A DNA stretch of 63,992 nt, the filler included, from a bacterium (GTDB lineage: Bacteria > UBA9089 > CG2-30-40-21 > SBAY01): assembly GCA_040757115.1 (NCBI GenBank). It is 7 parts of 7 records of this genome, joined end to end, with 100 filler letters (N's around TTAATTAATTAA, not from the genome) between each part and the next. Parts side by side here need not be neighbours in the genome. Positions count along the whole stretch, not along the records: positions 35,845 to 41,880 come from JBFLYA010000224.1; 6 more parts are not named here. One strand, written 5' to 3'. The notes beneath the pieces are model-generated. The model did not search any database. It was not told where the DNA came from and saw nothing but the letters and a program-made list of their open reading frames with translations. Positions 4,050 to 41,980 of this stretch are shown here, in pieces. The position numbers and the translations under genes are program-made. The first letter of the stretch is position 1, and every line of letters starts with the position of its first letter.

Positions 4050-7000
4050 ATGTTTTGGAAACAGATTTGGGAAAAAATCAAACAACATAAAATTCTAACC
4101 TTATCCTTAATTATTATTGCTCTCTTTGGAGTATCTCTATTCTTAATAAAAGAAAAACCAATCCCTTTAGTCGAAAAGATAAAATCAATAAAAATCCCCC
4201 TACCATTTCAACGAAAACCAGTTAAAAAAGAGTTTCAGATAACTATGCAGCCTGAAGGACTCCTCAAGGAATTTCCCAAAGAGATTACATTTTACTTTGA
4301 AGAAGGATATGCAGAGGCATCTGGGTTGAAGATAGAGGATATCTCCAATTCTATAAAGATAGAGCCAAAGATAAAAACCTCTGGAACATGGATAAATGAG
4401 TGGATATTTCAAGCCTCTTTTCTGGAAAACCTCAAGCCTGAAACAAAATATGAAGTAGAAATATATAGCATCCCTCTAACTATTCCAAAAGCAATCCCTC
4501 ACCAAAAGTTTAGTTTTACTACACCAGGTTTTACCGCCCAAATCTTTCTTAGCTCTTATGAAAACCAGAAACCCAGAATTTTATTAGACTTTACCTTCGA
4601 ACCAGTATTAGAGAAGATAACGCAATATCTTGAGATTCACAATTCAAAGGGAAAAAGGATAACACCATCAGCGATAGAAAAAGTTCAGGGAAAACCTAAT
4701 GAGGTCATTTTCTCTCTGCCAATCATAGAGAAAGCGGATGAGTTCTCTATTGTTTTAAAGAAAGGTCTTCCCTGCACATCCGGTTTCTTTTTAAAGAATA
4801 ATATCCAGGCAAAGATTCCTGTAAGCCCAATAACGATGTCCATAACCGAGCATAGAATTGAAGAAGCAGATGATGGGTATCTGGTGGTATTTTCTGCGGC
4901 ATCGGATGTTGAGAAGAATATTGACCTGGTGATAGATGAGAAGAATATCTCGCATTTTATAAATATAACCCCAGAAATTCCTCTTGATATTACCACCTCA
5001 AGAAATAGAATCTATATTTTATCCTCTAATTTTCTACCTCAAAAAGAATATACAATTACCTTAAGACCAGGGATAAGGAGTAAAAAAGGAAGCCTGCTTA
5101 AGGAGGAATATACCTGCACATTTACCACTCCAGAAAAGAAGCGAAAACTTCAATTCATCTATTCGGGAAGACATTTTGGAAAAACAGGAAACTGGAATCT
5201 TCCTTTAAAGGTAACAGGTATAAAAAAACTAAACCTTGATGTAGTCTATCTCCCTCCCGAGAATACCCTGTTTTGGCACTTGAGAAATTGGAGTCGCACA
5301 GATTATTTCTGGGATTTGGGCGAAGAGGTTATCAAAGATAGTCCTATTTCTGTTGAAAAAGATGGCATATTATGGATAAACCTCAAGGACTATCTAAAGG
5401 ATACACAGCCAGGAACATATCTTGTAAGAACTCGCAGTGTAGAGGGAAAGTATGTGGAGGATAATATTATTGTTGTCCTTTCTGATTTATCCATTGTGGC
5501 AAAGTGGTTTAAGAAAGACCTCCAGGTCTGGTGCTTCAATTCATCAAACCTCAAGCCTGAGGATAATGTTGATATTGAGGTAAGGACTTCAAAGAATTTT
5601 GTCTTCGGAAAAGGGACGACCGATGCCGATGGTAAATGCCATATATCTTCCCCAAAAGAGGAAAGACAACCTTACATCATCTTTGCCAAAAAGGGTGATG
5701 AATGGACATATTTATACATTCCCGGGTTGTCTATCCCTCTATCAGAATACGACATTCAAGGTGAAGACCCTGAAATACCATACCTCGCCTATATCTATCC
5801 TGAGCGGGAACTCTACAGACCAGGAGAAACTGCCAATGTTGGCGTTCTGGTCAGGGAAAGAAATTCATTCAAAGGTGTATCTATACCTGTCAAGATAAAC
5901 ATAAGAGACCCAAAGGGCAATAACTTCCTTTCCTTATCCGGGAAAACTGATGAATATGGACTTTGCACCTTTGTCATTCCTACATCTGCCTCATCTCCTA
6001 CAGGTAAATATATCATCGAGCTTATAGCAGGAGATAAGACACTCTATACCACAGGTATATTTGTTGAATGTTTTGTTCCTGAAAGAATGAGAGTCAATCT
6101 CTCTTTACCCAAAGGGGCATTTGACCCATATAAACCATTTCCTTTAAAGATAGCCGCAGAATACCTTTTTGGTGCTCCTGCTGATAATGAAGAATACCAC
6201 GGTAAGGCAAGGTTTGAAGAGACACCATTCAAATCCTCTGGATATCTTAACTATTCCTTTGGACCAGTCTATTTGGAAAAAGAAAAACCACCTGTTTATG
6301 AAGAGGCAATTGATGAAGGAAATCTTGATGAAAAAGGAGAGGCAAGTGTAGATGTTTGTATCCCTCCAGAGGTTAAATTTAATAACCCGATTCTATTTAT
6401 CGGAAATGTTGAGGTTGAAGAGGGAGGAAGTGGAAGGGTTACCAGAAAAAGGATAACAAAAGAAATTTACACCAAGCCATTTTATATTGGGATAAATCCC
6501 GATGTAACGAGAATAATAGAGAATAAACCCTGCAATGTCTCTGGTGTTCTCTTGAAACCCAAAGGAGATTTTTATCAGAAAAAGACTACATTGTATTACC
6601 AGATATTCAGACTCTCTTATCACTATAGCTATAGATATTGGGACGATGACAATTGGAAGGCAATACTTAATAAAATTCCAGTAACACAAAAGAAGATTCT
6701 TTCTACAAGTGATGGTAAGTTTGCCTTTTCATTTACAGCAAAAACATCATGGGCTGATTACCTGATAGAGGTTGGCAATGAAGATAATGATGTTTTATCC
6801 CAAACAAAAGTCTGTGGCTGGGGTTGGTGGTGGGGTGAAGATGAAGAAACGACAGAATCCCCTGAGGTTCTTTCTTTAAGGCTGGATAAGAAGGAATATG
6901 ATGTAGGAGAAGAGGTCAAGGTTTCAGCATCTTTACCATTTGAAGGAAATATCCTCTGGACGGTTGAGTTGGATAAAGTATATGAATCCTCTTTTCAAGA

Positions 7001-29608: not shown

Positions 29609-29708
29609 NNNNNNNNNNNNNNNNNNNNNNNNNNNNNNNNNNNNNNNNNNNNTTAATTAATTAANNNNNNNNNNNNNNNNNNNNNNNNNNNNNNNNNNNN
29701 NNNNNNNN
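29609..29708. other. Artificial contig linker
   Basis: N-runs flanking TTAATTAATTAA (stop in all six frames). Confidence 0.97.
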
Positions 29709-35844: not shown

Positions 35845-35980
35845 GTCATAAAAGTCAAGTTTCTTTTTGTTCACAATCAAAGATTTCATAAACTCTCCCA
35901 TGAGGAGAGAAATATTATTAAATATTAATTATAAATTAATTAATAACTATATTAAACATATTATACGAGGGAGGTAGACC

Positions 35981-36175
35981 ATGAGCAAGAATTTCGATGC
36001 GTATATAACACTCGATAAAACAGGTTTGGAGAACAAGTATGTGATCATTGTAAATGGCGAAGTGGTGGCAAAGGGCGAGAATATTGAGGAAATGCTTGAG
36101 AGAGTGCGGCAAGAATATCCTCATGAAAAACCCTTTGTGGCAAAGGTGCCTGAGGAAAGGATGTTGGTACTATGA
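35981..36175 (+). CDS. DUF5678-like small protein
   Basis: NKYVIIVNGEVVAKGENIEE...YP...PFVAKVP pattern; GGAGGT RBS. Confidence 0.7.
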   Translation: MSKNFDAYITLDKTGLENKYVIIVNGEVVAKGENIEEMLERVRQEYPHEKPFVAKVPEERMLVL

Positions 36176-36570
36176 TACGTCAAAGGTTTAGAGAAGAAAA
36201 AAGTAGTTTAGGAATTGTTCTTCGCCCTGTAGCAGAGGTGATTTTGGAAAGGGATAGCTTTGCCGTGGAGACACCAATGTATGTAGATTCAGGTGCTGAT
36301 GTTTCAATGATACCATTTCGTTTTGGCAGAGCACTTGGGTTTAAGCAAGAAAAGGAAGATACCATTCAAGAAATTAAAGGTGTTTCAGGGGCAGGAGTTC
36401 CCTATATTCTCAAGGAGGTTACTTTGGTGTTGAATAGCAGAAGGTTGAAAATAAGGATAGCATGGGTATTATTAGAAGAAGTGCCGATGCTTATGGGAAG
36501 AATGGACATATTTGATAAATTTCGGGTGGTCTTTGATGAAAGAAATGCGTGGATTGATTTTGAGGAATGA
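36172..36570 (+). CDS. Retropepsin-like (clan AA) aspartic protease
   Basis: VDSGADVS catalytic motif and LMGRMD; ATGA-coupled to the upstream gene. Confidence 0.8.
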   Translation: MIRQRFREEKSSLGIVLRPVAEVILERDSFAVETPMYVDSGADVSMIPFRFGRALGFKQEKEDTIQEIKGVSGAGVPYILKEVTLVLNSRRLKIRIAWVLLEEVPMLMGRMDIFDKFRVVFDERNAWIDFEE

Positions 36571-36582
36571 CGGCGGAACAGC

Positions 36583-36891
36583 GTATAACAGAGCGTATCT
36601 GGTTTCGTGCCTTCGGCACTCCGCCCAAATTCCTCGCTTCGCTCGGAACTTCAGATACGCTCAGCCGATAACCAAAATGTCGCTTCGCTCCATTTTGGTT
36701 ATTGGGGTGCGGATGAGCGAAACGCTTCAGCAGATGTAATTCGAGGGAAATTTTTGAAAAAAGGAAGTTGCTCTGCGTCACTTCGGCTATCAGCGGCGGC
36801 GGGGAACCCATGAAGTGGGTCGCGCTTTGGGGTCGGGGCTGAAGTCAAAATGTCCCTTCGGGGCACTTCGCTCATCCGCATCCCGATAGGC
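36583..36891 (+). other. Long attC-like site (309 bp), R' mutated to GATAGGC
   Basis: R'' GTATAAC 12 nt after a stop; nested inverted repeats; homologous to 37672-37961. Confidence 0.65.
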
Positions 36892-36954
36892 GACATGCAC
36901 TTAGAGGATATATCATAACAGTTAAATCCGATGAGAGATATGGGTGAAACTACA

Positions 36955-37272
36955 ATGAAGCAGATTAATAACATCATCAGGGAGTTTAAAGTGAAAATTG
37001 AAAAACTCTATGGCAAAAGATTAAAGAATCTCCTCCTCTATGGTTCATGGGCGAGGGCAGAGGCTACAGATGATTCCGATATTGACCTAGCTGTGGTTTT
37101 CGATGGTGAGATTACACCAGGAAACGAAATAGATAGGATGATAGATATCATCATGGAGATAAATCTAAAATATGGTGTTCTAATATCAGTCTATCCTGTA
37201 TCTGAAAGGGATTATTTTGCTTTGAAAAGTCCATTACTTATGAACATTCGAAGGGAAGGAGTGCCTGCATGA
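36955..37272 (+). CDS. Minimal nucleotidyltransferase (MNT) antitoxin
   Basis: LYGSWARAEATDDSDIDL (GSX10DXD). Confidence 0.88.
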   Translation: MKQINNIIREFKVKIEKLYGKRLKNLLLYGSWARAEATDDSDIDLAVVFDGEITPGNEIDRMIDIIMEINLKYGVLISVYPVSERDYFALKSPLLMNIRREGVPA

Positions 37273-37655
37273 AAGAAGTAGCATCCCTCATAGAGAGACC
37301 AAAGAAATATCTTAAGAGTTCTAAGATGCTTATTGACGAGGGGGATTATGAATCATCGGTATCCAGAGCATACTATGCGATGTTTTTCTCGGCTGAGGCT
37401 ATACTTCTCACGAAGAATTTATCATTTTCATCTCACGGGGGCGTGATATCTGCTTTCGGAGAATACTTCGTCAAAACTAATATTTTTCCGAGAGAGATGG
37501 GCAGAGCAATTAACAGAGCATTTGAGAAAAGGCAGTTAGGGGATTACGAGTAGACCTTTGTAATATCCAAGGAAGAAGCAGAGGAAATCCTTGAGAATAG
37601 CACACATTTCATAGAAAAGATAATCCAATATTTAAAAGAGGGTAAGTTCCTATGA
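37269..37655 (+). pseudogene. HEPN domain protein with in-frame TAG at 37551-37553
   Basis: SRAYYAMF, SHGGVIS, KRQLGDY; frame continues TFVISKEEAEEILEN...KFL* after the TAG. Confidence 0.82.
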
Positions 37656-37671
37656 AGCACATGTGCACGTC

Positions 37672-37961
37672 GCCTAACAGAGCGTATCTGGCTTCGTGCC
37701 TTTGGCACTCCGCCCAAATCCTGCTTCGCAAGACTTCAGAGACGCTCGGAGCGATAGCCAAAATGACGCAGAGCTCGAACCCCTTTGGGGTTCGCATTTT
37801 GGTTATCGGGATGCGGATGAGCGAAAGGCTTCAGCAGATATAGCTCAAGGGGAATTTTTGAAAAAGGGAAGTTGCTCTGCGTCACTTCGGCTATCAGCGG
37901 ATGAACGGCTGAAGCCAAAATGCCCCTTTGGGGCACTTCGCTCATACGCATCCCGTTATAT
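37672..37961 (+). other. Long attC-like site (290 bp)
   Basis: R'' GCCTAAC, R' GTTATAT, outer GCGTAT/ATACGC stem; cassette-end complementarity on both sides. Confidence 0.72.
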
Positions 37962-37996
37962 GAAATTGTTAGCCATCAAAAACAGGAGAAAATACG

Positions 37997-38767
37997 ATGG
38001 AAGAAATAGAATTTGCATTTGCAGATTCTGTTGAAGTAGAAGCAATCGGAAGGTTGTTAAAGCGATGTGGCTTGCCTTACGAGGATATTGCCAATCACCT
38101 TCATCACTTCATGGTGGCAAAGACGGGTAATGATTTGATTGGAGTAATTGGACTTGAAGTGTACGAGAAGGTTGGGTTGCTGCGTTCCCTTGCCATAACA
38201 GACGATTATCGGGGCAGGGGTATTGCAAAAGCAGTCTACACAAGGATATTGGCGTATGCCCATTTACAAGGGATTGAAAGCCTCTACCTGCTGACGACCA
38301 CAGCGGAAGGCTTTTTCTCAAAGATGGGCTTTACCAAAGTGGAAAGGAACAACATTCCTGAATCTATTCAAGCCACAAAGGAATTTCAGAACTTTTGTCC
38401 TTCCACTGCTGTCTGCATGACCAAGGGAATTGAAAAAGACGCCCGATATTATCCAAAAGAGGTTCTACGTCTTCAACCCGATGTTCTAGGAGCAAGAATG
38501 TGGGGCATTGCGCTGGAAAAGACAATGTTCACATACTTTGAGGTGGAGTCAAACTGTCGGTTTGAGATACACGCTCATGAAAGTGAGCAAATCACGATGG
38601 TTCTTGAGGGGGAACTGTTTTTTGAGGTAGAGGGAAGGATTGTCGGCGTTAAGAAAGGGGAGGTCATAGCAATTCCTTCAGCCCTTCCCCATGCGGTATT
38701 TACGCGGGAGCAATTCGTAAAAGCGGTTGATGCCTGGTCCCCTGTAATGGAAAAGTACAAAAAATAA
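37997..38767 (+). CDS. ArsN2-type GNAT N-acetyltransferase fused to a cupin domain
   Basis: GLLRSLAI, YRGRGIA, LYLLTTTAEGFF, EFQNFCPSTAVCM; C-terminal HAHESEQ...PSALPH cupin. Confidence 0.82.
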   Translation: MEEIEFAFADSVEVEAIGRLLKRCGLPYEDIANHLHHFMVAKTGNDLIGVIGLEVYEKVGLLRSLAITDDYRGRGIAKAVYTRILAYAHLQGIESLYLLTTTAEGFFSKMGFTKVERNNIPESIQATKEFQNFCPSTAVCMTKGIEKDARYYPKEVLRLQPDVLGARMWGIALEKTMFTYFEVESNCRFEIHAHESEQITMVLEGELFFEVEGRIVGVKKGEVIAIPSALPHAVFTREQFVKAVDAWSPVMEKYKK

Positions 38768-38784
38768 CGATGACTGGCAACTTC

Positions 38785-38866
38785 ACATAACACGGTGTTT
38801 GTGGAAATCTACGCTTTCCCAAATCCCACCAAAGGCGAGACTTCACAAACACCGAGAACGTTATCT
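38785..38866 (+). other. attC site (82 bp)
   Basis: R'' ACATAAC, CGGTGTTTGTG / CACAAACACCG stem, R' GTTATCT. Confidence 0.8.
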
Positions 38867-38958
38867 GCAATGCCGTGGTCCTAAAGATTTAGAAAGATAA
38901 TACCAATTTCTCAAATAAAGAATTGATAAAGTAACCCTTTGAGAGGAGGATAAAAAAA

Positions 38959-40107
38959 GTGTTGCTTACTCACAGAGGAAAGATAATAGCAGAAGAGGAA
39001 AAAATTGCAGAAACATTAAGCTAGATTTGTGAGCATATTAAGAGTGAACATAGAAAGGGTAAAATCCCTTTGTTTATAATTGGCTCAGGGATATCAAGCT
39101 CTTTAAAAGATTCTTCTGGCAAACATCTTGGCAAAGGTATTCCTGATATAATACGAATGATAGAAAAACTTAAAGAGATATCATCTAATTATTCTTTACC
39201 AGAAGACCTTAATCAACTTTTTAAAACATGGGAAAGTTCAGAGGAAAGGAAGAGAGATAGGAGTATCGTTTCAAGAATTCTTATGTATTTTAAAGAGCCA
39301 TCCTTGGAGGAATTGCGAAAGATTTGGAGCGAATTTATAGAGTGGTTACTCTATAAGTGTGTTGATGAAGAAAAAAATATAGGTATGATAGAAGCTAAAC
39401 CTTCTATTGCCCATGAAAAGATTGCTGAGATGTATAAAAAGGCTGAGGATGGTGGAACTAATGCTATTTGCCTGACAATAAACTTTGATAGCCTTCTATA
39501 CAAAGCTCTGAGTGCAAAATTTGATGAATTTGATGAAAAAGGAAAGATTAAGAAGAAAAATGCCTACACATACTTTGAGCCTGAAGGATGCGAAGAGTTT
39601 TTCAAAAGAATGGAACACCATAGTGCTGTGGCCGAAATCCAAGCAAGAGAGAATGTCTTTTGGGCGAAATGTAAATCCTCTCTTTGCAACTTGAGAAACA
39701 AATCAATTCCTCTTTTAATTTCTGTAAAATACGGCCTTGGGGGTGCCCCTACCAAATGTGAATGTGGAGGATCGAGGGATATATTAATCGCTTTCCCTGG
39801 GACATACGAAAAAGATAGAATAATGCAAGAGATGCTTGCTAAGATTTGGAGATACCTTGCCTATAGAATAAGTTGTGTGATTACAATTGGGTTAAGTGGA
39901 GCATGGGATCCAGTTCTCATAGCATTTCTCTCGGATCTCCTTGGAGAAAGAGGAATTCCCTTGATTGATGTCAACAAAAAACCAGAAGATTCATGCTTAG
40001 TAAAAGAGATTGTTGAAACTGGGGTTTTTGATGCAGTAAGCATCACACAACCTGCTGACAATTTTATGGAGGACTTTGTAAAGAAATATGGGAGTTATGA
40101 TCTGTGA
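38959..40107 (+). pseudogene. SIR2-like protein; in-frame TAG at 39022-39024, 3' end set by an insertion
   Basis: GAGGAGG RBS + GTG; FIIGSGIS, LTINFDSLL, IGLSG motifs; CKSSLC...CECG possible Zn site. Confidence 0.7.
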
Positions 40108-40325
40108 TTCAGACAGTAGACTATAGACATCAGACTTCAGACTAAAACGGGCAGAAATTGCACAAGAATGAAGGCTTGGGAGAGCTACCTATACTTCTGT
40201 AGGTAAGGCTTAGGGAAAAATTCAGGGGGTGAGGTTTTGAGGAAGGCTTCTCGAATGCCACTAATTTCCTGCATAAATAGAGTCTATAGTCTTGTGTCTG
40301 ATGTCCAGTGTCTGAATCACAGATC
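40099..40325. mobile_element. 227-bp MITE with (C/T)AGAC 7-mer inverted arrays
   Basis: Perfect 17-bp TIR GATCTGTGATTCAGACA / TGTCTGAATCACAGATC; no target duplication seen. Confidence 0.8.
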
Positions 40326-41577
40326 TTGATAATCCAGAGGTTATGAATTATATCTCGAAGGATGACAAGGAGATAACTTCATTTAATTTATATATGTTTA
40401 CAGATACACCAATTTCTCTTGTCAATAAAGATGGTGTCAAGAAAGCAAATTTCCCTTTGCCTCCAGGAGAAATGTATATTTTACTACAGAAGATAATGTT
40501 AAAAGAGCATTAGAGCTTGGAGAAGGTGATATAAGAATCGGAACTCTTGATAAATCTTCTAATCCAGAGGTTAGAATTACACCTGATAGGCTTTTTCAGC
40601 CTCATATTTCAGTTTTAGGTAGAACAGGGTCTGGCAAATCTTATTTTGTTAAAGGATTGTCGAGGCATATTAAAGATAGAAATATTATCATTTTTTCACC
40701 CACTGATGAATACAATGAAGTTGGCAAGAAATATGGAATACAAGTACTTTCAAAACAAGATATTCTTTTGCCTTTAAAACCAGACTTTATGGGGTCAATT
40801 TATAATTTAACCCTTCAGGAAGAGATGCTATTGAAAAAATTCATGACAAAAGTTTCTCTCAAAGAAAAAATTTTTAGTGGAGAAATAGCAAACCAACTAA
40901 AAGATTGGGTTGCTCAGGGTTCTATTGTCTCTAATAAAAAAGGAAAAACAAAACAGATAAATCTTTTTGCATCAGAAGAGATATTATCTGAAGAATGGGA
41001 AGAGATTAAAATCCCTAATTATGTGAATACTACCTTACATAAATTACAGTCAAAACCCCTTTATTTTTCTAACAAACCTATGAAGGTTCTTGAGAACTCT
41101 CTGATTTTAGATATGAGTGAAATAGAACAGGAAGTTCAAGAAATTATTATTCGTTATACACTACATAATATTCTTGAGAAATATCGAAGTAAAAAGGAAG
41201 GAGTTGCTCGGCCAAAACTTCTTGTAGTAATAGAGGAGGTGCATAACTTTGCTCCGACTATCCAAACGACTTTTTGCAAGGATAAAATAATACAAATAGC
41301 CAGGGAAGGAAGGAAGTTAGGAATAAACCTATGTCTTTTAAGTCAACGACCTCGTCATTTTGACCAGACTGTTCTTTCTCAATGTAGTAATCTATTCCTT
41401 TTTCATATTCCCCATCCTGATGATGTCAATCATGTCTTTAGTGTTTCTCCTTTTTACAGTGGAAACTATGTTGAATTAGTTCAGAGACTTGATGTAGGAA
41501 AATGTTTAATAGTGGGGAATGTCTTTAGGTATCCCATTGTATGTTCGGTTAGCTTTGAAAACACAATGAATGTTTGA
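40326..41577 (+). pseudogene. HerA/FtsK-family ATPase, 5' truncated, frameshift near 40470
   Basis: FPLPPG / NVYFTTE split across frames; HISVLGRTGSGKS Walker A upstream of the tracked ORF; VIEEVHNF, AREGRKLG, SQRP. Confidence 0.85.
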
Positions 41578-41679
41578 AAACTACCTCATATCTAATGGCT
41601 AAATGAGTAGTTTCAAGTTTGAGTCTTGTTTTGTTAAATCATTTTTGCTATCAACCTAAGAGAATTAAAAAGGTAGATT

Positions 41680-41880
41680 ATGCGAATACTTGCAAAATTA
41701 AAAAGAAACCTGTCCTGGTAATGCTGACAAGGCTATAACTGTTGGAGCGAGTAAGGATGAAAAGATAGCTAATTACAGCAGTAGAGGGTTTGTATTTCAA
41801 GAAAAGCCGGATTTGCTAGCCCCGGGTTCTCTTTCTATTGGCAAATTTAAGGTTATGGGAACTTCTATCTCCACACCAAT
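41680..41880 (+). pseudogene. S8 (subtilisin) peptidase remnant, runs into contig end
   Basis: Frame from 41702: ETCPGNADKAITVGASKDEKIANYSSRG..KPDLLAPG..MGTSISTP; out-of-frame start MRILAKLK at 41680. Confidence 0.75.
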
Positions 41881-41980
41881 NNNNNNNNNNNNNNNNNNNN
41901 NNNNNNNNNNNNNNNNNNNNNNNNTTAATTAATTAANNNNNNNNNNNNNNNNNNNNNNNNNNNNNNNNNNNNNNNNNNNN
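41881..41980. other. Artificial contig linker
   Basis: N-runs flanking TTAATTAATTAA. Confidence 0.97.

Follow-up and report, generated by a model that had tools for sequence, protein, structure and literature searches.

The DNA analysed here (the window) is a stretch of 63,992 bases in which separate contigs are joined, with N/TTAATTAATTAA spacers at 29609, 35745, 41881, 47937, 53890 and 59839. This report deals with one locus on the 6036-nt contig that occupies 35845-41880 and ends where the spacer begins at 41881. Three gene remnants follow each other there on the + strand: a SIR2-like gene (38959..40101), a gene for a HerA ATPase (40325..41577) and a gene for an S8 subtilase (41680..41878). 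The first two are both truncated, and where they meet lies a non-coding miniature inverted-repeat transposable element (MITE) of 221 nt (40102..40322). A first-pass annotation of this DNA had proposed a degraded three-gene defence locus consisting of SIR2, HerA and S8 genes, located directly behind an attC site. The signs of degradation that it had listed (TAG at 39022, a MITE, a frameshift near 40470 and loss of most of the S8 gene) are all present, and so are the individual motifs that it had read from the three genes; the composition that it had proposed for the system is not what the relatives of these genes point to. For comparison we used G001, the nearest comparison genome, which has 34% of the sampled window words in common with the window, and run X1, a public groundwater-metagenome run which holds 95% of the window's words and served as the source of an independent contig set.

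At the start of the SIR2-like gene a GTG codon with a GGAGG ribosome-binding site is found at 38959. Its frame is interrupted 21 codons further on by an in-frame nonsense codon TAG (39022..39024, + strand), where P0002, the closest relative of the encoded protein (893 aa, 63% identity), has Gln. The independent X1 contigs carry the same letters at this codon, with 0 other letters. Because of this upstream TAG, the longest open reading frame (ORF) must start at a TTG codon inside the first beta-strand; it lies in frame with the GTG at 39070-40107 and codes for 345 aa. In a tblastn comparison, 38983-40101 aligned with residues 1-370 of P0002 (62% identity, E = 2e-154). The match breaks off after residue 370 of the 893 residues, and its last base, 40101, directly precedes the MITE. 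What is left of the gene is the N-terminal sirtuin-like domain of a SIR2-like-HD fusion, the HD half (~523 aa) being absent.

The 345-aa ORF contains GSGIS, TINFD and GLSG motifs and four Cys residues, as the first-pass annotation had noted, and these are conserved in the relatives. A HMMER search against 1.84e9 cluster representatives yielded 168 relatives at E <= 0.001. Residues were counted in the columns of two alignments, A2 and A4, the latter comprising 40 relatives of 348-490 aa. G5, G7 and S9 are invariant (73/73), as are N138 and D140 (74/74) and G274 (74/74). The four-Cys site is kept to nearly the same extent (C201 and C230 in 74/74, C206 in 73/74, C232 in 72/72).

The 345-aa protein has no Pfam or NCBIfam match and no match to a PADLOC SIR2 model at E <= 0.1; its sole PADLOC match was weak and local. 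A word-index search with it retrieved only the protein itself, and phmmer with the single sequence gave no match in the PDB. An AlphaFold2 (AF2) model based on an alignment of 75 sequences (74 relatives) had a mean predicted local distance difference test score (pLDDT) of 92.5 and a predicted TM-score (pTM) of 0.91; the model from the single sequence, with a pLDDT of 34, was unusable. When the alignment-based model was compared with the PDB by Foldseek, there were 314 matches at E <= 0.001, and the top matches were all sirtuins. Sir2Tm (2h2i) was best, with E = 1.7e-8 and a probability of 1.00, and SIRT2 and SIRT5 were likewise found at E ~1e-8 and probability 1.00. The SIR2 chain of the SIR2/HerA complex (8wld_K) was matched with a TM-score of 0.55 and E = 2e-7. 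Sequence profiles reached the same family. With profile A2, FAM118B was the best PDB match of the N-terminal domain (E = 6.6e-6), and with the domain-only profile A4 the SIR2 family protein 8yhx_G came first (4.8e-5) and FAM118B second (0.0025). Sir2Tm, DSR2 and KomC were matched near 0.007, and SIR2 from the solved SIR2/HerA complex scored only E = 0.16. The sirtuin fold of the 345-aa protein, on which the first-pass annotation had made its proposal depend, can be considered established at the level of a predicted structure, because the AF2 model, the Foldseek matches to sirtuins and the profiles reaching SIR2-family chains agree on it.

The position of the catalytic His deserves separate consideration. 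Eight residues before the first zinc Cys, the relatives have Arg in 67 of 74 cases, Asn in 5, and Lys and Trp in 1 each. The Gly-Asp following this Arg (the RGD motif) is invariant in 74/74 relatives, and so is the Asn of the NFD motif. In Sir2Tm the catalytic H116 falls at the position that matches the family Arg (H116 is known from PDB entry titles, C124 from the alignment). The sirtuin-like domain thus apparently has Arg in place of the catalytic His, while by its conserved sequence the motifs of the NAD pocket and the zinc module are kept. FAM118B shares the GxGxS and NFD motifs with this family. Its active site contains the Asn N163 and the His H206 (PMC12700824); unlike FAM118B, the sirtuin-like family keeps the Asn without a conserved His. 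In the window, the corresponding codons (39646..39654, + strand) read R193-E194-N195, where the family has RGD and sirtuins have His-Gly. The changes G194E and D195N affect residues that are invariant in 74/74 relatives. In ~45 of the 149 relatives listed, the sirtuin-like domain makes up a protein of its own (330-500 aa) that lacks the HD motif, and these ~45 bear the same RGD and Cys4 signature.

The HerA remnant (+ strand) begins at the equivalent of residue 57 of its homologue P0152 (468 aa) and has an intact C-terminus. By tblastn, residues 57-104 of P0152 match 40325-40468 and residues 98-467 match 40447-41556, with 73-74% identity. The two matches are in different frames. At 40469..40470 (+ strand) two bases stand in place of the single Ala codon that separates PPG from NVY in the homologues, which is a -1 frameshift; a 56-aa ORF from 40343 overlaps the HerA frame (from 40447) with this shift. 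At the frameshift site there is no gap relative to an independent X1 contig, which has the same letters. The closest HerA proteins, P0152-P0156 (52-74% identity, 466-472 aa), have 56 residues ahead of the point where the homology of the window begins, directly after the MITE. The Walker A motif GRTGSGKS is present at 40618-40641, in the same frame as the listed ORF and upstream of its start at 40657, as the first-pass annotation had observed; VIEE (Walker B) is present as well. The longest HerA ORF (306 aa) starts past the Walker A because the first 56 residues are missing and the frame is shifted.

The window HerA is matched by the PADLOC HerA model (2.6e-38) and by Pfam DUF87 (PF01935; 1e-14, above the cut-off). 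The NCBIfam HerA_antiphage models, with cut-offs of 850 and 800, match its C-terminal part and give 80 and 60 bits. The archaeal repair HerA model gives 124.7 bits over the full length; all these scores lie far under the model cut-offs. In length and profile it is nearer to archaeal repair HerA than to the curated anti-phage HerA. An inverted repeat directly past the HerA stop (41580-41615; stem of 11-12 nt with one unpaired base, loop of 13 nt) may, judged by eye, be a terminator.

Since a sirtuin-fold ORF and a HerA ORF stand here adjacent and co-oriented, one could regard the locus as a functional two-gene Sir2-HerA system that was streamlined by domain loss. However, the SIR2-like ORF would then start at a TTG inside its first beta-strand and carry changes at two invariant residues, and its partner would be a frameshifted HerA devoid of the first 56 residues whose ORF starts past the Walker A. 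A streamlined, working system is therefore extremely improbable.

The organisation from which the two remnants derive became apparent from loci with a HerA of this clade. Five such loci were obtained in scans of genomes and metagenomes with HerA, one from a Bacillota metagenome-assembled genome (MAG; L011) and four from metagenomes (L012-L015); the scan of genome contigs, with a single HerA protein as the query, contributed one locus only. All five have the same gene order on one strand, with ORFs that abut or overlap: a SIR2-like-HD protein (883-986 aa), then a middle protein (275-306 aa), then a short HerA (461-473 aa). The database records imply two further co-occurrences. P0002 (SIR2-HD) and P0155 (a close HerA) each have one recorded contig, which in both cases measures 31,648 nt and has the same sources, and P0003 and P0211 are each on one contig of 6,958 nt, both named Dehalococcoidia. 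Thus the SIR2-like gene and HerA do belong to one type of operon (5/5 loci), as the first-pass annotation had supposed when it spoke of a Sir2-HerA variant, but the pair is not the canonical one. Two loci on viral contigs, in which only the HD domain was matched, were set aside.

In the native effector, the HD.GH motif occurs in 74 of the 149 listed relatives (the window's own sequence excluded) and in 58 of the 63 of those with at least 800 aa; a HerA-type Walker A was found in none of the 149. The profile of the C-terminal half matched EF1143 (2o6i) with 5.4e-26 and SAMHD1 with ~1e-19. The metal ligands H..HD..D are invariant in 15/15 sequences, and Pfam HD was detected in five of eight proteins tested. 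These sequence comparisons place the C-terminal half among the HD domains of deoxynucleoside triphosphate (dNTP) triphosphohydrolases of the SAMHD1/EF1143 type. The dGTPase models of PADLOC and NCBIfam scored far under the membership level with the HD half (26.7 bits, cut-off 152). The middle protein had no match in Pfam, PADLOC, NCBIfam or the PDB profiles. Its structural neighbours in the Atlas are meaningless because the Atlas model has a pLDDT of 0.31.

In the longer loci, the operon has NYN, MmeI-like methyltransferase, AAA_21 ATPase and FRG protein genes as neighbours, which are typical of defence islands. The operon is rare; the fusion was found in one of 401 sampled Bacillota genomes, in which the other 20 matches were HD-only enzymes. 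In L011, two direct repeats of 275 nt (28-302 and 6538-6812, 97% identical) bracket a segment of 6.2 kb that holds the operon and a 98-aa ORF. The 3' end of a TSCPD/zinc-ribbon gene lies within these repeats, which suggests that the bracketed segment is a small integrative island that duplicates the 3' end of its target.

Compared with this operon, the window lacks ~2.65 kb (measured on L011), which would code for the HD half of the fusion, the whole middle protein and the first 56 residues of HerA. A tblastn comparison found no trace of these elsewhere in the 64-kb window. The gap between the end of the P0002 match (40101) and the start of the P0152 match (40325) is filled by the MITE, whose inverted-repeat arms of 45 nt (40099-40143 and 40281-40325) are 80% complementary. 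The element listed at 40099-40325 by the first-pass annotation is real, but it did not arise at this place by a simple insertion. An insertion of the MITE into an intact gene pair was rejected, since neither of the two genes beside it is complete when compared with its homologues. The MITE is also abundant in G001, where 49 of 50 matching places fall on the element. Perfect target-site duplications of 11 bp flank two of the six full-length G001 copies and none of the other four. One G001 copy (C220:484-704) abuts an integron-integrase fragment (C220:124-483), as if it had been inserted in the integrase gene.

Three scenarios are compatible with the junction: recombination between two MITE copies, a deletion next to an insertion, and collapse of two copies by the assembler. 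In the last case the 2.65-kb gap would be an artefact, with one MITE copy after the sirtuin-like domain and another at HerA codon 56. The element is short and highly repeated (49 places in G001; a summed depth in X1 in the thousands), the window copy has no target-site duplication, and the independent X1 contigs end within the MITE whichever flank they come from, with depths of ~332 and ~312 on the two flanks. Because they break there, these contigs cannot decide between the scenarios. Yet the missing segment is on no other contig of the window, and even with two MITE copies the operon would be interrupted twice and would still contain the TAG, the REN sequence and the frameshift, all of which lie outside the MITE and were reproduced in the independent contigs. 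We therefore regard an assembly artefact as unlikely. The window copy is, to judge from its sequence, non-functional under every scenario for the gap, since the TAG, the frameshift and the Glu-Asn in place of Gly-Asp are independent of the MITE; it is a wreck of pseudogenes.

The S8 remnant consists of two pieces (+ strand). Its ATG lies at 41680, 103 nt past the HerA stop, and has a purine-rich stretch upstream. The first nine codons lead directly into a part that is in another frame and corresponds to residues 218-274 in homologues of 327 aa. The first nine residues (41680-41706) are identical to those of P0275; for residues 218-274 the identity is 89% with P0272 and 84% with P0275. The C-terminal frame, which the first-pass annotation had placed about 100 nt past HerA, lies at 41702-41878 and matches Pfam Peptidase_S8 with 3e-6 (profile positions 165-244 of 288, including the Ser motif). 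Missing are ~206 codons (equivalents of residues 10-217), including the regions of the catalytic Asp and His, and the gene runs into the contig end. The closest relatives (79-89% identity) are S8 peptidases of 327 aa and database fragments of 132-135 aa. Five of the latter (P0271, P0274, P0282, P0283 and P0285) are C-terminal S8 pieces whose first codon is an internal Val codon; because the gene is recorded repeatedly in this form, the 327-aa S8 gene may often be broken or interrupted elsewhere too.

Whether this protease belongs to the system bears directly on the triad of SIR2, HerA and S8, in which a variant of Sir2-HerA would have its own protease as the third component of one defence system, here in a degraded copy. 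The arrangement in the window is compatible with it: the S8 gene comes after HerA and has its orientation, and the stretch that separates them contains no recognisable attC-like site. Full-length S8 homologues match the PADLOC subtilase model (1.8e-16) and, weakly and only locally, IetS (29-33 bits, 8e-8), and they have no obvious signal peptide when inspected by eye. As in IetAS, an S8 protease gene here adjoins an ATPase gene. In contrast to IetAS, the ATPase is HerA and not IetA, the adjacency is not conserved, and the S8 type has 327 aa and only a local match to IetS profiles of 749-780 positions. The relatives argue in the opposite direction. No S8 gene was found in the five operon loci, of which four (L011, L012, L014 and L015) are informative downstream and L013 extends for 109 nt only, nor in any of 116 fetched loci (828 kb) searched by tblastn with two full-length S8 homologues at E <= 1e-3. 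The search for intact neighbourhoods that the first-pass annotation had suggested thus led to a conserved operon, but to one in which the third gene is a different one and lies between the other two. Clusters of S8 homologues share no recorded contig size with the HerA clade, whereas those of SIR2-HD and HerA do; and the S8 gene has its own start codon. An S8 neighbour is possible in the closest sub-clade (P0152-P0155, P0002), which lies outside the loci compared. Nevertheless the triad appears very improbable, and from its sequence the S8 fragment is read as a separate small gene, also decayed, rather than as a third partner.

The operon seems to be foreign to its host. In 24 genomes of the phylum of G001 (the host's phylum) neither a SIR2-like domain nor the S8 type (20 genomes in the case of the S8 fragment) nor a close HerA was found; two HerA matches in these genomes are distant (29-37% identity) and cover the C-terminal part only. 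A horizontal acquisition is suggested by this absence. Taken together, the best explanation, which we hold to be likely as a whole, is that the window carries the dead remnant of a horizontally acquired three-gene operon (SIR2-HD, middle protein, HerA) beside a separate S8 gene, and that the SIR2-like/HerA region is the last visible unit of an integron-like array in a groundwater MAG.

Several points weigh against this explanation. The join across the MITE is unbridged, and the genome could hold two MITE copies with 2.65 kb between them; the lack of a target-site duplication is weak evidence, as four of six full-length G001 copies also have none. The operon is known from only five loci, with HerA proteins 34-51% identical to that of the window, and the genomic contexts of the closest relatives (58-74%) are outside this comparison. 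For the middle protein, no relative with a known function was detected. The Arg at the position of the catalytic His was assigned by motif spacing and not by residue-level structural superposition. Finally, the attC sites are candidates identified by sequence and folding, and GTTATCT departs at two positions from GTTRRRY, the consensus of the attC R' box.

The surroundings of the locus are consistent with a cassette array. All ORFs on the contig have one orientation and form cassette-like units. In the first unit (within 35981-36570), the stop codon of a 63-aa ORF overlaps the start codon of the next ORF, which codes for 132 aa and is aspartyl-protease-like (Pfam E = 4e-4, weak and under the cut-off). 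The second (36931-37553) is a nucleotidyltransferase-HEPN pair with overlapping stop and start, and the third (37997-38767) a GNAT acetyltransferase-cupin fusion. Each of the three is followed by a related imperfect palindrome of ~90 nt. By alignment of their sequences and by folding, these palindromes are attC-like sites on the + strand, located at 36580..36672 behind the first cassette, at 37669..37760 behind the nucleotidyltransferase-HEPN cassette and at 38786..38866, where the site closes the GNAT-cupin cassette and precedes the SIR2-like gene.

This last site contains the core GTTATCT that the first-pass annotation had recognised. The heptamer (38860-38866) resembles an R' box and is the 3' end of an imperfect palindrome of 80 nt with an R''-like CATAAC and an L''/L' stem of 11 nt. 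The first ~90 nt of the site align with the repeats behind the two upstream cassettes. The bottom strand of 38783-38870 folds with -18.5 kcal/mol (z = -5.0; none of 200 shuffled sequences folded equally well). In this structure the outer boxes pair, a spacer is left unpaired and the inner stem measures 11 bp, and it is the bottom strand that folds best. The other two sites gave z = -2.5 and -1.4, and an Rfam scan of the contig, attC-like sites included, returned nothing of note. In G001, related repeats were found at 12 matching places, and integron-integrase fragments at contig ends gave partial matches to TIGR02249 (215, 208 and 125 bits; full-length cut-off 265). There is no integrase on the contig at 35845-41880, and no closing attC before its end at 41880. 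Because three related palindromes stand behind co-oriented cassettes and integrase fragments occur in G001, an array of the integron type is plausible, with candidate attC sites only.

Integron cassettes reportedly carry defence systems (Darracq et al. 2024 and Kieffer et al. 2024). The array in the window resembles them in its co-oriented ORFs, each with an attC-like palindrome behind it, in a cassette of the toxin-antitoxin type (nucleotidyltransferase-HEPN) and in the integrase fragments of G001. It differs in that the contig is devoid of an integrase and a visible closing attC, and in that the intact operon would be an unusually long cassette (>5.6 kb). A second repeat of ~230 nt is located behind the attC-like sites of two cassettes (36672-36900 and 37760-37960; copies 90-96% identical). 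It contains several nested inverted repeats, and pieces of it occur at 12 places in G001, mostly on contig C579. This repeat could be a cassette without an ORF, another MITE or a structured RNA.

How does the native operon relate to known systems? In the literature searched we found no description of a sirtuin-HD fusion together with HerA, although supplementary tables of surveys of defence systems may list one, and the intact SIR2-HD/middle/HerA operon appears to be undescribed. The closest known kind is Sir2-HerA. This is a two-gene anti-phage system with cryo-electron microscopy structures 8wld and 8w9l (PMC11514289, PMC11472057, PMC13434337), and a classification from 2026 deals with two-gene types of E. 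coli (PMC13434337). Both kinds of locus combine a sirtuin-fold protein and a HerA ATPase in one operon, and the relatives lie in defence-island neighbourhoods. Here, in contrast, the effector combines its sirtuin-like domain with an HD dNTPase in one protein, its gene is separated from that of HerA by a third one, and 67 of 74 relatives have Arg at the position of the catalytic His (by spacing). The HerA is also ~100 aa shorter and stays at the 80 and 60 bits mentioned above. On three counts, namely the residue at the position of the catalytic His, the number of genes and the scores with curated models, those of PADLOC for SIR2 included, the operon is not a member of Sir2-HerA.

The operon is best described as a variant of the HerA-coupled effector systems. 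One publication describes a conflict system coupled to HerA in which sirtuin and endoDNase partners can replace each other (PMC9503650). Like the DUF4297-HerA type, the present operon occurs in mobile defence loci and combines a HerA-family ATPase with an effector gene that can be exchanged. It differs in its effector, which is a sirtuin-like-HD fusion, and in an extra protein of no recognised family. No nuclease domain was detected by searches against Pfam, PADLOC and PDB profiles. DUF4297-HerA and other HerA-coupled effector systems were reportedly the subject of Gao et al. 2020. With the SAMHD1/EF1143 dNTPases, the native fusion has in common the C-terminal half and its invariant metal ligands (5.4e-26 with EF1143; 15/15). 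The difference is that this HD half is fused to a sirtuin-like domain and encoded together with HerA; from the window it is absent. Depletion of dNTPs by bacterial dGTPases reportedly acts as a defence (Tal et al. 2022).

By analogy with these systems, a mode of action can be outlined. The operon would work like Sir2-HerA and DUF4297-HerA. A HerA hexamer would scaffold the effector and gate it with ATP, on the model of the solved Sir2-HerA complexes (PMC11514289, PMC11472057) and of the HerA-coupled conflict systems (PMC9503650). The HD dNTPase of the effector would deplete nucleotides; dNTP depletion would be the most likely output because the dNTPase site is apparently complete. Since the sirtuin-like domain lacks the catalytic His, it may be a module that docks on HerA, drives oligomerisation or senses a nucleotide, rather than a classical NADase. 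The intact relatives could then constitute an undescribed HerA-gated immune system, with an effector made of a His-less, zinc-binding sirtuin and a SAMHD1-like dNTPase, in which HerA and the middle protein would trigger dNTP depletion upon phage infection, possibly with NAD sensing, and which would travel on integron-type cassettes and small integrative islands. This proposal is tentative, and we consider it possible rather than probable.

The copy in the window is without function, and its value lies in pointing to a rare conserved operon (168 relatives among 1.84 billion representatives). As a record of the genome in which it lies, the locus illustrates how defence cassettes in an environmental genome are eroded by a multicopy MITE, by point mutations and by deletions. 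The operon itself joins two anti-phage themes that have been studied separately, namely HerA-scaffolded effectors and SAMHD1-like depletion of dNTPs. Its His-less sirtuin-like domain raises the question of whether sirtuin folds may serve as sensors or assembly modules rather than as NADases.

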